From the sequence record PZ445449.1: a DNA stretch of 64,000 nt. One strand, given 5' to 3'. This DNA comes from a phage. The notes under the pieces were generated by a model. That model had not been told where the DNA came from and did no database searches. It was given only the letters and a program-made list of their open reading frames with translations. The position numbers and the translations under genes were made by a program. This document shows, piece after piece, positions 46,543 to 60,623 of this stretch; positions within the stretch are counted from its first letter, which is position 1; the number at the start of each line of letters is the position of its first letter.

Positions 46543-46732
46543 GCTTAAATCTGCATGGAACATCGCTGTGGGGGACGAGATCCGTATCCCAGGTGGAAAG
46601 ACCATTATGAAGATATCTCGTATTGAGTACGAAGGTGACCGTGTATTCCACATCTTCGCAGAAGATGGTCGAGAAATTTATATACAGGCAGGTTCTCACA
46701 TTTATATCCGTAAGAAAGGGGACGACAAATGA
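46535..46732 (+). CDS. hypothetical small protein
   Basis: ATG 46535 after AAGGAGGG. Confidence 0.4.
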   Translation: MFKLKSAWNIAVGDEIRIPGGKTIMKISRIEYEGDRVFHIFAEDGREIYIQAGSHIYIRKKGDDK

Positions 46733-47058
46733 CAGAGATCATCATTTCAACTGCAGGGTATGTGTTCCTGACAATCATTGCACTGACTATTTTGGTGACA
46801 GTGTATGGGTTTGTTATCCTTCCTATCCTTGAGACATTTAGTTTGTGTCGGTATTGGAGAAAAGCTTACGGTCCACAACCATGGAAGGACTGGCCCCACC
46901 TGGTGCGCTTAGCGTTCTCTTATGCTTACGATCACTCCAGTAGTGCATGCATAACCGGATACCACGCCCACAACTGGAGCTGGGAAGGATTGAGGAAATG
47001 GAATGTTACAAAGACCATACCTCTACGCATGTACAAACCTAAAAACAAAGACAGCTGA
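46729..47058 (+). CDS. small membrane protein
   Basis: 109 aa; N-terminal double hydrophobic helix. Confidence 0.45.
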   Translation: MTEIIISTAGYVFLTIIALTILVTVYGFVILPILETFSLCRYWRKAYGPQPWKDWPHLVRLAFSYAYDHSSSACITGYHAHNWSWEGLRKWNVTKTIPLRMYKPKNKDS

Positions 47059-48080
47059 TACTTGAAAATTCCTGGCATATCAAGTGTAAGGGGGATTTCT
47101 AAAATGGATTTCCTCCTTTTGATATTTCACCGGGCTGGATATTTTAAAATTCTTAGAAAATCAGAAAATGGATCGAAAACTAAAATGGATTTTTCAGAGT
47201 AGGCGCGACAAGCTGAATAACTCATCCTATCGTTTGCACCATATTCCAGGCCACCATTATAGATTTCCCACACATGCTAACCTCCCTCTACTAGAACTTC
47301 CTCCACTTGCCCTTAACCTTCTATGGTAACAATCTAACCACTATCTTGAAGTTGCGGTGCAGCTTTCCAAGTACTCGATCTACTTTTCATTTCATGGCTT
47401 GGATTTTCTGAAAATTTTTCTCGATAAATTTCTCAGTACTCGATCTGTTTTTCGTTTTCTGAATCGGATTTTCTGGAAATCGTTCCGGATCTCGACCTGA
47501 AATTTTTGGGGACGAAATCGATTTTTCGTTTTCAGAAATGGATTTTTAAAATTTCTATATGGGAATATTTTATGGGATACTGTTTTATAGGAAATTGTTA
47601 CGGAGGGTAATTAGCATGCTAATTAAATTTATTAAATGCGAGGAGTTCTCATTTAGAATTTTGAATGATAATCATTCTCGTTTGCAGAATAACGGGCAGG
47701 CCCGGTGATTGTCTCCCGGCCCCTGTTGCCCCGGCTTGTTATTATAGTAACACACAGGACAAAGAAAGCAAGAAGTTTTTGCATAAATTTTTATACGATA
47801 ATGATAATCGTTCTCATTTCATGCAGCGCCCATCCCCAGTGGTTGTCTCCCCCGTCACCGGTGCCTGCCGTCCTTTCGATAGGTATATTTTGCCACCTGG
47901 CGGGGCCGCTGTCAACACTTTTCAAAAAAAAAAAAAATTTCTAACCTGATGCGCTGACCGCTGCAACCTGGCGGGGCCAGCCTGGCAGGGACTAACTGAC
48001 CAGGTAGGAGAGAATGAAGGCTTGCAAACCTGGTGGGCCTATGCTATAGGATAGGTAACAATTGAAGAGGAGGTACAAAA
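47059..48080. repeat. about 1 kb non-coding region with short direct repeats, duplicated ~90-nt units and an A14 tract
   Basis: AAAATGGATTT x4, GTACTCGATCT x2, GGATTTTCTG x2, GATAATC(A/G)TTCTC...TTGTCTCCC units x2, CCTGGCGGGGCC x2, A14 at 47924-47937; no convincing ORF. Confidence 0.6.
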
Positions 48081-48263
48081 ATGGAAGGTAATATGATCCC
48101 CATGGAAAATGTAGCTATTAATGACGCTGAGGCTATCGCCTTGGTTGAAAAGGCTATGGCGGGAGCGTTGGAACATAAAGAAGAGTACGAAAAAATGATG
48201 GTTAACCTGGCAGGGGCGGCGGCTGGAGAATTCTACCCAAAAATAATTTTAACTAATGGTTGA
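48081..48263 (+). CDS. hypothetical small protein (first early-region gene)
   Basis: 60 aa; GAGGAGG RBS. Confidence 0.45.
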   Translation: MEGNMIPMENVAINDAEAIALVEKAMAGALEHKEEYEKMMVNLAGAAAGEFYPKIILTNG

Positions 48264-55075: not shown

Positions 55076-55129
55076 ACCTGGCGGGGCCGAAAAGGCCCCA
55101 ATTATGAAAATAAAGAGAGGTAAATCATC

Positions 55130-56773: not shown

Positions 56774-56803
56774 ACAGGGCTTGCAATGGTCCTGTTTTTT
56801 GTT
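56774..56803 (+). terminator. intrinsic terminator
   Basis: ACAGGGC-ttgcaatg-GTCCTGT followed by TTTTTGTT. Confidence 0.55.
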
Positions 56804-56884
56804 ATACTTGTTTCACGGCAGGCACCTGGCGACGGGGGGAGACAATCACCGGGTGTGCCTGCTATATAAAAACTATAAAAACCG

Positions 56885-56913
56885 TTGACATCTGCCAGGT
56901 GGTGGGGTAGCAT
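56885..56913 (+). promoter_or_regulatory. sigma70-type promoter
   Basis: TTGACA - 17 nt - TAGCAT. Confidence 0.5.
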
Positions 56914-56968
56914 TTATCTCGAAGGGGGCAAAAGCGCCCACACAACAACCGGAAGAGAGGAAAACGCC

Positions 56969-57241
56969 ATGTTAAGCTGGATTAACCAAGAAGTTGAATC
57001 ACGTTTTAATGCTATTTGGGATCTCATCGAAAAAGAGGACGGAACATCAAGCCCTTATCTCAATAATCTTGAATTCCATTTCGTGGAAGCGATGAACGCA
57101 GAACATGATCACGAAGGTGGTGCGGATGAATTCGCTAAAGGATATGGCTTCAACAATGCCAACGAAATGATCGAGGCGGTTGTACTCCAGGCTGAGGAAG
57201 ATTATCAATTAAAAACGCTTGAATTCTGCCGCCGTAAGTAA
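56969..57241 (+). CDS. hypothetical protein
   Basis: ATG 56969 after AGAGAGG. Confidence 0.5.
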   Translation: MLSWINQEVESRFNAIWDLIEKEDGTSSPYLNNLEFHFVEAMNAEHDHEGGADEFAKGYGFNNANEMIEAVVLQAEEDYQLKTLEFCRRK

Positions 57242-58129: not shown

Positions 58130-58147
58130 TTTTTTAACTGAATTATC

Positions 58148-58173
58148 AAGGGGCTTAGGCCCCTTTCTTTTTG
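58148..58173 (+). terminator. intrinsic terminator
   Basis: AAGGGGC-ttag-GCCCCTT followed by TCTTTTTG. Confidence 0.65.
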
Positions 58174-58179
58174 TCTGCT

Positions 58180-60620
58180 CTTCTCCTACCATAAACGGCC
58201 CTACCTGGCAAGTGGAATAATTGACGAGCCATCAATCCCACACACTGTACAAATATACATGTAAAATAACTATTGCATAACCTTTCATTGTGTGGTAGCA
58301 AGTCCATTTTTACCCGTTTTCTCTCCCAAAAGTGCACGTAATGCCGCTATTGCACAAATTTTAACCTGATGCACATCTCCAATATCTTGTCAACAACTAA
58401 AAATCTTTATAAGTCATACACTTACACAGCATCGAAAGCGTGTTCTACGCGAAAAATCGAGTATAACTATAGCCGCCAGATCTCAGAATTCACGTACGCA
58501 CGCCATTCTATAGCCTGCAAAGTATTTATTCCAACCACAGAATAACGGAATAGTCAATACCTGCATAAAATAATTATTCGTGTAAACTGCATAACATAAA
58601 TCAGCTCAGGTGTCAACATTTTTCGTAAACAGTCCGAAATTATCACGATGAGTTATCATAAACAGAGAAATCTTTAGTCGTCTAATGTTTACTGTACATT
58701 ACTATACTGACTGGAATCATTAGATGACTAAGAGAAAGATAAGAAATAATTAATAATGTAATTATTTTACCTGTAACAATAAGGCAACTATGCAAACGAA
58801 TGGCATGGCGCGACGGAGTCGCGACATAATATAAAAGCAGTAACCATCACCCCCGTGATAGTTTGTCTGCAATCTATTAATCAGATCATAGTTGCCTTGT
58901 ATTTAGTTAATCATGACATGATAAGCAAGGCAACTATAGATCTTCTAATAGTTGCCCTGCTTTTATATTATGTCATCTATTGTAAACAAGTTAATTATTA
59001 TCATGCAAACGAATGGCATGGCTTATCATCTCTGTATAAACAGTTTATGCGTGAACAGTGAGGCATGCAATAGTAAGGGCGGGAATAATGAGAGTGTAAA
59101 CGGTCAGGCATGTCAATTATGTCAATCGTGTCAGTTATGTCACCATTATGTCAGACAAGTTTTTCCCCTCTTTGTCAAGTGCTGCATGAAAAATTTACAA
59201 GCTTGTATGGTAGCATTTTTGCGGCCCTGTTTACATTCAGTAATGTATGTATAACCCTTGATGTGTGGGCGCTTAGACGTCTAGACGGTCAGAAGTCTGC
59301 AGGTCAATATCTAATCTATCGGCTGCTAACTATATCCCACACAAATAGTAATAAATATAATTGTTATATGCGTAAACAGTGACTCATGTTATCAATCCCT
59401 GTATGGATCGCCAGTGGTGCGCATAATGGGTATTATGTTAAATTGCCCGTAATGATAACAGTTCTCACAATGATAGGTATTCTCATTCATCCACACAAAA
59501 TAGGTTGCAAATGTTGTGCCACTGTGTGAACGGCCTGGCCTATTAATTTCTCTCACTGCCTCGATATTTGAGAATTGTTATAAGAATGAGAAGTATTCCC
59601 ATTCCGTCCGCCTGGCAGCGCTCCTGTAGGTCCTGCAAGGACTCTAGCTGAAAGCTAGACCCTTCGGGCCTCCCTGTAGGTCAGGTCAAAATCGTGGTAG
59701 AATTGGGCCTATTCAGATATTTCTGGCTGACTCTTCAGGTCTGTGTGGGAAAAGCCAACCTCTCCGGCGGGGCAGGGGGAGGTCAATTAAAAAATTTACG
59801 TGGTGTATGAAGCGCTCTTCAGGTAAGGCAGGTATTATGGGATGAAACCCTCTTCAGGCAATGATATTTGTGGGTGTGATATTTGCTGGAAAGCCAGATA
59901 TGACGGGACTCCCGGCGGGGCAGGGGTAGTACAGACAGGGAAAATATGGGGATGTAGTTGGGGAAATTGATCAGACAGGTAGAGTATGGAATATGTTACA
60001 AGTATGTTAAATATGGAGGGTGAATATCTGTAGGATTTGTGTGTAAAATCAAAGACTTAAGCGGTGTTGTGGTATTTTCTATAAATAATTCAAGTTTAAT
60101 AGGCAATATTTGTCTCTATCCGTTTTGTGTGGTAAACAGATTCAGATTAGATTGGTTTACAAGTGTATACATAATATACAAATTAAAGATACAAGAAACC
60201 CCCCCTCCCCCCTTCGGCTACCATTCACCTTTTCCTCTGACTGGTACTTAAACACTTATTCAGACTCTTCAGGTTATCACCCATATATCATATGGCAGTG
60301 ACTGGTGTCCTCCGGCCCCTCTTTCGTCACCCGTCCGCTTCGCCATGCTAATGCCATAGCCAATGGTTCGGTTGTTCACCCTGTTCACTCAGGTGTATCT
60401 CCATACCCCTTCAAACCGAAGAGAACAGAAAACCCGAATTACTCGGTAAAAGAAAAGAGAAGAACTTAATTTTATCAGGATAGGCAAGAATGTCAAGGCA
60501 TGACTGCTCACTAAACAAGCAAACAGTCATGTGTGGGAGGTAAGTGATTGTGGTGGTAGGAAATTTAGTTGAAAGATGTGTTATAGGTGCTCCCAGCACT
60601 TTAGCCGGGTAGCTAATTGT
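58180..60620. repeat. about 2.4 kb non-coding, repeat- and hairpin-dense region between convergent transcription units
   Basis: No convincing ORF; ATGCAAACGAATGGCATGGC x2; inverted GGCAACTAT/ATAGTTGCC arms; five TGTCA repeats 59111-59153; CCTGTAGGTC x2; CTCTTCAGG x4; CCGGCGGGGCAGGGG x2; C-rich tract at ~60199. Confidence 0.6.
59101..59156. repeat. iteron-like array of five TGTCA repeats at 9-11 bp spacing
   Basis: TGTCA starts at 59111, 59120, 59129, 59138, 59149. Confidence 0.6.
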
Positions 60621-60623
60621 GTG

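Follow-up and report, generated by a model that had tools for sequence, protein, structure and literature searches.

Predicted Fur boxes and minus-strand promoter-leader modules in a conserved gene-free locus of rV5-like phages

Introduction

The 64,000-nucleotide (nt) stretch of sequence record PZ445449.1 considered here (the window) belongs to an rV5-like Escherichia coli myovirus (Vequintavirus), and between its plus-strand open reading frames (ORFs) at 46729..47058 and 48081..48263 lies a locus (47059-48080) that is gene-free. As read from its sequence and that of its relatives, this is a strongly conserved control locus in two halves. The right half (47635-47943) consists of two tandem minus-strand copies of a predicted module, in which a sigma-70 early promoter is followed by a hairpin leader of ~55 nt and a Fur box, while the left half (47088-47660) holds phased iterons and AT-rich DNA. 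The Fur boxes, predicted sites for the ferric uptake regulator of the host, an iron-dependent repressor, are formed by the GATAATC(A/G)TTCTC heads of two related ~90-nt units and were absent from a first reading of the letters (the original prediction). Both promoters point left, away from all genes and into the gene-free iteron and AT-rich element. These features are tentatively interpreted, with confidence slightly short of even, as Fur-gated non-coding transcription into a cis-acting iteron element that is possibly a replication origin.

Conservation of the Locus Across Genera

The original prediction described about 1 kb without a credible gene, serving perhaps as a module boundary, and both descriptions agree with what was found: the longest ORF frame is broken in relatives, and the locus forms a conserved island separating gene blocks. 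A re-reading of the sequence and a repeat search also recovered the features listed there at their positions. The segment 46900-48300 is 98.9% identical to that of Escherichia phage A6-1, and 108 phage records span it nearly in full. In the genus alignment, 47095-47190 and 47395-47940 show almost no variation between Vequintavirus genomes, though the flanking coding DNA has diverged, and this holds where the spacer 47196-47360 has diverged as well. The repeats in these two stretches are kept in close relatives.

Beyond the genus, a sensitive blastn search matched the unit 1 core in 251 phage records, which include Phapecoctavirus (Stephanstirmvirinae), Mydovirus, Seunavirus, Certrevirus, and unclassified Serratia, Salmonella and E. 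coli phages. The core always lies inside a large gene-free gap, and the flanking genes differ between genera; the non-coding region is conserved above its flanking genes both within the genus and across genera. The common layout in Vequintavirinae and Phapecoctavirus comprises iterons, 1-4 Fur boxes, the leader, and a promoter at a fixed distance of 60-66 nt. Judged by these comparisons, purifying selection has maintained the arrangement as a whole in two subfamilies.

Predicted Fur Boxes

Three sites in the right half resemble operators of the host Fur protein:

47797..47815: predicted Fur box 2, GATAATGATAATCGTTCTC, with 17/19 matches to GATAATGATAATCATTATC; 0.04 matches expected in the window
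47661-47679: predicted Fur box 1, TTGAATGATAATCATTCTC, with 15/19 matches to the E. coli consensus
47635-47651: degenerate distal Fur box, beside Fur box 1

The two ~90-nt units that these boxes head are real duplicates (repeat families D6 and D9), which lie 134-136 nt apart and have cores that are 88-90% identical. Boxes 1 and 2 are the only sites in the 64 kb with four or fewer mismatches to the 19-bp Fur consensus. A looser family pattern, AATGAKARNNNTTCYCA, has eight matches against 0.35 expected in the window, and all eight fall either in the 47-48 kb locus or in a gene-free region at 59.45-59.60 kb. An exact 17-mer of box 1, GAATGATAATCATTCTC, occurs in >120 bacterial genomes of several phyla, and in eight of ten sampled bacterial loci the start of an iron-uptake gene lies 20-130 nt from it (a TonB-receptor plug, IucA/IucC, three Peripla_BP_2 proteins, an Fe3+ binding protein, a ZnuA-family protein and an EntD-like phosphopantetheinyl transferase). 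In ~30 phages from six or more genera, among them Phapecoctavirus, Mydovirus, Seunavirus, Certrevirus and unclassified relatives, one to four Fur boxes occupy the orthologous place, and these are often 29 nt apart. Taken together, Fur very probably binds predicted boxes 1 and 2.

In unit 2, the original prediction had instead read a promoter-like site, TTGCAT(47779-47784)-N18-GATAAT(47803-47808). The two hexamers are present as described, but the GATAAT taken for a -10 element is the second hexamer of the Fur box at 47797-47815, and it reads GATAAC in six of ten close relatives.

Similar boxes were seen elsewhere. A second Fur-like cluster (AATGATAACAGTTCTCA, AATGATAGGTATTCTCA and AATGAGAAGTATTCCCA at 59448-59605) lies at a strand switch inside the gene-free stretch 59383-60623 of the window. 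Tandem near-perfect Fur boxes occur in the T5-like phage DT57C (L272:2570-3170, ~7.0-7.6 kb of the left terminal repeat), where the T5-like arrays lie within the 1.9-kb untranslated repeat region of the terminal repeat. An exact Fur-box 20-mer, AATGATAATCATTCTCRTTK, was found, often in tandem arrays, in >120 unrelated viral contigs (IMG/VR loci L008-L127, for example L009, L028, L035, L080, L117 and L118); one copy directly follows a consensus promoter in L009, and others stand beside DnaA-box clusters in L035 and L117. By sequence matching, then, Fur boxes appear widespread in phage genomes.

Predicted Minus-Strand Promoters and Their Hairpin Leaders

The remaining parts of the two modules, together with a further copy elsewhere in the window, are as follows:

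47741..47771, minus strand: P_mid, a predicted sigma-70-type promoter, TTGCTT(47771-47766)-N19-TATAAT(47746-47741)
47680..47736, minus strand: unit 1, the predicted ~55-nt leader of P_mid, a hairpin with loop GAGACAAUCA, then UUAUUCUG
47887..47943, minus strand: P_right, a predicted promoter, TGTTGACA-N17-CAAAAT (47915 to 47887), with a TG extended -10; 10/12
47816..47881, minus strand: unit 2, the predicted leader of P_right and a paralog of unit 1, with loop GGGGGAGACAAC; nhmmer E = 4e-28
47927-47943: A14T3 tract, in the UP-element position of P_right
56776-56880, plus strand: third promoter-plus-leader copy, TTGCAA(56781)-N16-TATACT(56808), followed by a ~55-nt hairpin with loop GGGAGACAAUCACC

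The original prediction placed the units on the plus strand behind TTGCAT-N18-GATAAT, whereas the conserved promoters were found on the minus strand; the units would therefore be read leftward. Across ~20 phages, minus-strand promoters stand 60-66 nt (P_mid) and 206-230 nt (P_right) from the proximal Fur box, and their hexamers are kept while the GC-rich spacers are unrelated. Both P_mid and P_right thus have the attributes of a sigma-70 early promoter, namely -35 and -10 hexamers, a spacer of 16-19 nt and a fixed position. P_right also fits the published early-promoter consensus of the rV5 group, AAAA-N3-TGTTGAC-N-TATAAT (PMC7344957). The predicted Fur boxes come to lie at about +57 to +85 of each minus-strand transcript. 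A further minus-strand candidate just upstream of box 1, GAGACA-N18-TATTCT, was set aside, as by eye it is not conserved and is missing in unit 2.

Folding of the leaders favours the same strand. Compared with shuffled sequences, the leaders gave z = -0.7, -1.1 and -3.55 on the promoter strand and z of about 0 on the opposite strand, and RNAalifold returned -14 kcal/mol for the promoter strand vs -10 for the other. In the comparison of structure among relatives for which the original prediction had called, plus-strand sequences alone gave only -2 kcal/mol. In a covariance-model alignment of 41 matches, itself fitted to the structure, 89% of cells are paired and four of the 12 pairs change on both sides. 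In this model-fitted alignment the covariation score is 0.187 vs 0.137 in shuffles, none of 500 of which reached it, while a control with a slide of +3 scored 0.191; G-U pairs favour the sense over the antisense strand by 34:15, again with the alignment fitted to the model. The covariation is thus no more than suggestive of a minus-strand hairpin.

The third copy, at 56776-56880, was matched with nhmmer E = 4e-23 and is the best-folding of the three (z = -3.55). It carries no Fur box and lies in line with neighbouring genes, 5' of a second promoter and of the gene at 56970. Mydovirus-like contigs likewise have a second module ~7 kb from the main locus (L115:4993-5058 and L022:4328-4390, both on the minus strand), in which the promoter lies within a terminator hairpin and a Fur-like box, GTAATGAGAATTACTCTCA, follows at the usual distance. 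The minus-strand orientation of the units gains support from these copies, because both keep the order of promoter and leader, followed in the Mydovirus-like contigs by the Fur-like box. From these patterns it is quite likely that the units are minus-strand transcripts, and the two are paralogs that probably are both transcribed.

In genera other than Vequintavirus, a near-invariant element of ~75 nt, CTACCGGCGATCCACCTTCC...GTTAGCCCCGCCTTTTCGCCGTGGGGTGGCG, was observed between P_right and P_mid, in the place that unit 2 occupies in rV5-like phages. The hairpin is partly maintained in it. It was located at L005:1677-1750 (GAP31), with equivalents in L003, L004, L006, L007 and L138-L145, and it has no Rfam match.

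Iterons and AT-Rich DNA in the Left Half

Leftward transcription from either promoter would enter the following features:

47608-47625: 18-nt perfect palindrome, TAATTAGCATGCTAATTA, between the iterons and Fur box 1
47497..47660: AT-rich stretch (66-76% AT), invariant within the genus, with the A/T tract CTGAAATTTTTGGGG
47361-47407, 47426-47472 and 47500-47546, plus strand: three phased iterons (repeat families D1 and D2), with starts 65 and 74 nt apart
47196..47360: C/T-rich spacer, variable with many substitutions, the only poorly conserved part of the region
47088..47195, plus strand: left motif cluster of GGATTT and AAAATGGAT(T/C) motifs in a single orientation

The iteron-like array of the original prediction is borne out as three phased repeats, found at the same place in every related genus. 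Each repeat is 47-62 nt long and consists of a core, (G)TACTCGATCT, followed by TTTTTC(A/G)TTT and GGATTTTCTG. The phages CR8, FENT2, ChuuTotoro and W70 have 3-4 equivalent repeats, spaced 52-78 nt apart, directly left of the Fur boxes. The cores are genus-specific (TACTCGATCT, GTCTCGATCG, TTCTCGATCG or AACTTGAGAGG) with TTTTTC next in each, which is the pattern expected of iterons that co-evolve with a cognate DNA-binding protein. Downstream of the promoters the AT content is 70-76%, with 72-76% at 47500-47600, and the A/T tract CTGAAATTTTTGGGG is the homologue of GAAAAAATTTTTT in other genera. With three direct repeats in helical phase (spaced 63-78 nt in other genera) that adjoin AT-rich DNA, the locus has the repeat arrangement expected of an iteron-type origin, for which at least three repeats are required. 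The palindrome TAATTAGCATGCTAATTA is invariant in most Vequintavirus genomes, with no counterpart seen in other genera.

The individual repeats named in the original prediction fared well overall. GTACTCGATCT is exact at 47371 and 47436, and the C/T-rich block is found at 47250-47350, with a GC skew of about -0.6. The four copies claimed for AAAATGGATTT are approximate: what is exact is AAAATGGAT at 47101, 47165 and 47182, joined by a variant, GAAATGGATTT, at 47535. In the same part of the locus, GGATTT has six copies within 450 nt, all on the plus strand, against a window-wide rate of 0.55/kb on both strands. Other genera have short AT-rich repeats (repeat families D3) at the place equivalent to the left motif cluster. 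A small ORF on the minus strand, having a strong Shine-Dalgarno sequence at 47276, was rejected because it falls within the variable spacer and relatives do not keep it.

Proposed Mechanism and Points Against It

In the proposed mechanism, Fur-Fe2+ would sit on the boxes in an iron-replete cell. Bound at about +57 to +85, past a hairpin that ends in the U-rich UUAUUCUG, it would block or attenuate the leftward transcripts by roadblock-assisted termination; such a Fur roadblock or attenuation, proposed from the arrangement of sites, is possible but on its own somewhat doubtful. Under iron limitation, Fur would be unloaded and RNA polymerase would read through into the iteron and AT-rich element, altering its state. 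The most plausible effect of read-through would be to activate or prime a replication origin; alternatively, it might displace a protein bound to the iterons. That the iteron array is an origin, or has a role in replication control, is the leading guess and by itself a rather unlikely one. It is drawn by analogy, because the layout resembles the T7 primary and T4 R-loop origins and because the rV5 replisome is T7-like (PMC3606486).

Several observations weigh against this interpretation. Neither Fur box overlaps the -35/-10 region of a conserved promoter, the classical position for Fur repression; the boxes lie ~57-85 nt 3' of the start sites, and the minus-strand promoters stand at distances of 60-66 and 206-230 nt. 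The U-tract behind the hairpin is poor, the covariation alignment was fitted to the structure, one slide control scored equally high, and a few changes favour the opposite strand (CB7-type CCTGG; Alma). As to an origin, no consensus site for DnaA (TTWTNCACA) or IHF (WATCAANNNNTTR) was found in 46900-48200, and GATC, the Dam site, is not enriched in the locus. There is no GC-skew switch at 47-48 kb, where the skew follows gene orientation, and the authors of the rV5 genome paper concluded likewise on GC skew (PMC3606486). No initiator gene adjoins the locus, and the proteins encoded on either side lack an assigned function and differ from one genus to the next. The larger gene-free region at 58.1-60.6 kb, with a strand switch and Fur-like boxes, is at least an equal origin candidate. 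Finally, it seems counter-intuitive that a phage needing an iron-dependent ribonucleotide reductase would block primer or activator transcription when iron is plentiful.

The region just named was seen to comprise two ORF-free stretches, 58130-58951 and 59383-60623, with direct and inverted repeats of their own, including an exact repeat of 20 nt (58790 and 59003) and two copies of CCGGCGGGGCAGGGG. These stretches may be the "first" non-coding repeat region to which the original prediction, in calling the present locus the second, referred.

Alternative Explanations

The locus might instead be an ordinary zone of transcriptional punctuation or regulation with no role in replication, an unlikely reading but one with several observations on its side. 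The modules would then be generic early-promoter cassettes with stabilising or attenuating 5' hairpins, a phage transcription factor bound to the iterons would set the timing of the early-to-middle switch, and the leftward transcripts would only insulate the locus or collide with read-through from the upstream operon. The same module does head a normal early gene at 56776-56970, early promoters in this group frequently form part of a terminator hairpin, the locus lies between two plus-strand gene blocks, and the origin hallmarks that were sought (GC skew, DnaA/IHF sites) were not found. This reading nevertheless leaves unexplained why two strong promoters face away from all genes in every genus, why their gene-free target is conserved above its coding flanks, and why the iterons are helically phased. 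Another proposal is that the units encode Fur-repressed plus-strand small RNAs (sRNAs) like RyhB or PrrF, with each Fur box overlapping a weak rightward promoter (TTGAAT-N18-CAGAAT in unit 1, TTGCAT-N18-GATAAT in unit 2). Iron limitation would release C-rich RNAs whose UUGUCUCCC loop could pair with the Shine-Dalgarno-like GGGAGA or act antisense to the leftward leaders. Fur boxes do normally overlap promoters; TTGAAT-N18-CAGAAT (8/12, with the box as its spacer) is found at an unchanged offset in ~11 phages; UUGUCUCCC is conserved and complementary to the Shine-Dalgarno-like sequence; and promoters face to face, ~50 nt apart, would result. The weak unit 1 match is lost, however, in Mydo, CB7, phAPEC8 and L020, the spacing differs in the Mydovirus-like second copy, the -10 of unit 2 is GATAAC in most relatives, and the third copy carries the leader without a Fur box. 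Nor does the plus strand have a terminator in 47680-47950, the sole terminator-like site found being at 47502-47539; 29 plus-strand sequences gave an RNAalifold energy of -2 kcal/mol with fold z of about 0, and there is no Rfam match. The pair of plus-strand small RNAs suggested in the original prediction, lacking conserved structure and a terminator, is therefore distinctly improbable.

Much the same low probability attaches to a decoy function without any cis role, by which the boxes, at hundreds of phage genome copies, would titrate Fur and de-repress host iron uptake, supplying iron for the phage ribonucleotide reductase or raising siderophore receptor levels. That such decoys can work is known from the plasmid Fur titration assay, tandem high-affinity boxes are kept in many phages, including the T5-like arrays and >120 viral contigs, and the window has a second Fur-like cluster elsewhere. 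A decoy would not need the fixed 60-66 nt spacing to promoter and hairpin that is kept across genera and paralogs, however, and the 2-6 boxes per genome are modest beside the thousands of Fur molecules in a cell; moreover, the lytic cycle is too short for induced uptake systems to act much. Two further readings are far less probable still. A packaging (pac) site, physical genome end or terminal-repeat edge could be imagined from two records that break inside the locus, PQ002170.1 at its position 1 (L007) and LC739538.1 at its end, the breaks falling at CGAAAAAATTTTTT and within unit 1. These ends are more likely assembly breaks, because they fall on the duplicated units, a frequent breaking point for assemblers; the majority of database records start at other positions, and relatives are reported to be circularly permuted and terminally redundant (PMC3475682). 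The terminal-repeat edge listed in the original prediction thus finds no support, and the partition-like array that it also listed is unlikely for a strictly lytic phage. Least probable of all is that the locus encodes small proteins, ORF198 (47665..47949) and ORF199-like ORFs, for which hypothetical proteins are annotated in the records of rV5, FV3, Murica and BASEL phages. Records differ in their annotation of every small ORF, and a number of them leave the locus blank. ORF198, the longest ORF (94 amino acids), has its ATG within the Fur box and no ribosome-binding site; its frame is cut short in seven of 22 phages, with 7 or 14 codons left in each of two close relatives and 6-26 in phAPEC8, Mydo, GAP31, FENT2 and R7, and the A-tract indels are not multiples of three.

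Right Spacer, A-Tract and Neighbouring Genes

To the right of the modules lies one further feature:

47944..48080, plus strand: GC-rich spacer with CCTGGCGGGGCC and CCTGGCAGGG, partly deleted in some relatives

CCTGGCGGGGCC, which the original prediction counted twice, is present at 47896 and 47967 (0.07 expected in the window) and again at 55077. A weak promoter-like pair, TTGCAA(48022)-N17-TATAGG(48050), precedes the gene at 48081. The A14 homopolymer is present at 47927-47940, as described; the accompanying suspicion of an assembly error has to be set against a natural length polymorphism in relatives, real variation and homopolymer error being inseparable by sequence. The alleles of the relatives are A6T5 (a palindrome, in five phages) or A11-A13 with T2, and the A14T3 of the window is the longest; MaxTheCat, FV3 and JEP1 share with it the long A-tract class. 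The tract lies just upstream of the P_right -35 element, in the place of an UP element, and its length variation could therefore tune P_right.

Searches for known elements and functions were negative throughout. No Rfam match was obtained for the window or for five distant loci at gathering or permissive thresholds (E up to 10), and a tRNA/tmRNA scan found none. A captured host promoter or sRNA was rejected, since no homology to E. coli chromosomes was found. Pfam and PHROG scans of the flanking proteins in four genera assigned no function, and tblastn with the neighbouring minus-strand genes of other genera found no homologue in the window. The phiTE pseudo-ToxI/ToxI repeat was not matched in the Certrevirus loci, a weak negative given that the query sequence was approximate. 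A small protein that contains a helix-turn-helix-like motif, ..WQGGTVHQVA..TGL.VE..L.L.., is the product of the gene immediately to the right of the locus in Phapecoctavirus, W70 and CB7 (L138:1270-1490, L145:1174-1440 and L006:1776-2198, minus strand). This protein could be a DNA-binding partner of the locus in those phages; tblastn found no homologue of it in the window.

Significance

In full-text literature searches, Fur boxes in phages were found only before the sitABCD operon of temperate lambdoid phages (PMC6969025). A search of the full-text literature gave no description of Fur sites in virulent coliphages: the rV5 genome paper does not mention Fur (PMC3606486), and a preprint on the T5 repeat region lists DnaA boxes and never Fur (10.1101/866236). 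No transcriptome or origin mapping was found in the literature for this phage group. From the present locus, it would seem that a strictly lytic phage senses whether its host is rich or poor in iron. In its widest form, the proposal would be that virulent enterobacterial phages of two or more subfamilies (Vequintavirinae and Stephanstirmvirinae), apparently together with T5-like phages and many uncultured viruses, have wired Fur into conserved gene-free control regions, which in rV5-like phages would act as an iron-dependent gate on transcription into the iterons; stated so broadly, it is a rather unlikely proposal.

If true, iron availability would be a checkpoint for phage DNA replication or developmental timing, and the locus would represent an undescribed class of host sensing by lytic phages. 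If Fur binds, strictly lytic phages used in therapy and biocontrol would sense the iron status of the host; iron limitation is normal in infected tissue, so phage performance in vivo could change. A region that is blank or filled with "hypothetical proteins" in >250 genomes becomes a defined, testable cis-element and the first concrete candidate for a replication or control locus of the rV5 group.

Comparison with Known Systems

The predicted boxes resemble enterobacterial Fur operators, such as those of the aerobactin and fhuF promoters (GATAATGATAATCATTATC), in their 17/19 and 15/19 matches, in tandem arrays ~29 nt apart, and in the identical 17-mer that precedes bacterial iron-uptake genes. 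They differ in belonging to a strictly lytic phage, in controlling no iron gene, and in lying ~57-85 nt past the starts of predicted non-coding transcripts rather than over -35/-10. The PhoB "Pho boxes" and NtcA sites of cyanophages stand in front of auxiliary metabolic genes; there, as would be the case here, a virulent phage ties a nutrient-sensing factor of its host into its own programme, but the present case would involve Fur and iron, and a gene-free control region. With RyhB and PrrF the locus shares a Fur box adjoining a brief, conserved non-coding element that is duplicated in tandem like PrrF1/PrrF2, yet it has no sequence or Rfam similarity to them, no terminator and no plus-strand structure, and the supported promoter is on the opposite strand. 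Promoter-proximal RNA hairpins that modify elongation are known as lambda nut and HK022 put. The predicted rV5 hairpin would likewise be transcribed right after early promoters, in several copies per genome, but it has no sequence similarity to either and no known partner protein.

Among replication origins, the T7 primary origin consists of two tandem promoters and an AT-rich region, and T4 oriF and oriG combine a promoter with an unwinding element and an R-loop primer. The locus is like these in having tandem promoters directed into an AT-rich, gene-free stretch and a predicted leader RNA that is G-rich, and the rV5 replisome is T7-like in that it combines a family A polymerase with a gp4-like primase-helicase (PMC3606486). 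It is unlike them in that its promoters are of the host RNA polymerase type and that iterons and Fur boxes come before the AT-rich DNA. Iteron origins (lambda ori, P1 oriR, and plasmid and satellite RepA_N origins; PMC7145576) also have at least three helically phased direct repeats beside AT-rich DNA, and the repeat core of the locus differs between genera as if co-evolving with a cognate protein; the rV5 units, however, are 65-74 nt rather than ~20 nt, and neither an adjacent initiator gene nor DnaA/IHF sites are found. The untranslated region of the T5 left terminal repeat, with its injection-stop and DnaA boxes (bioRxiv 10.1101/866236), is comparable as a large, gene-free region dense in repeats and palindromes, conserved above the neighbouring ORFs and bearing sites for host DNA-binding proteins, including Fur-box arrays in T5-like phages. 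The two regions have no homology, the rV5 locus lacks DnaA boxes, and rV5-like phages have neither two-step injection nor long terminal repeats. Fur boxes, and the use of host transcription factors by phages, were thus already known, and it is the predicted module of promoter, hairpin and operator that is unusual.

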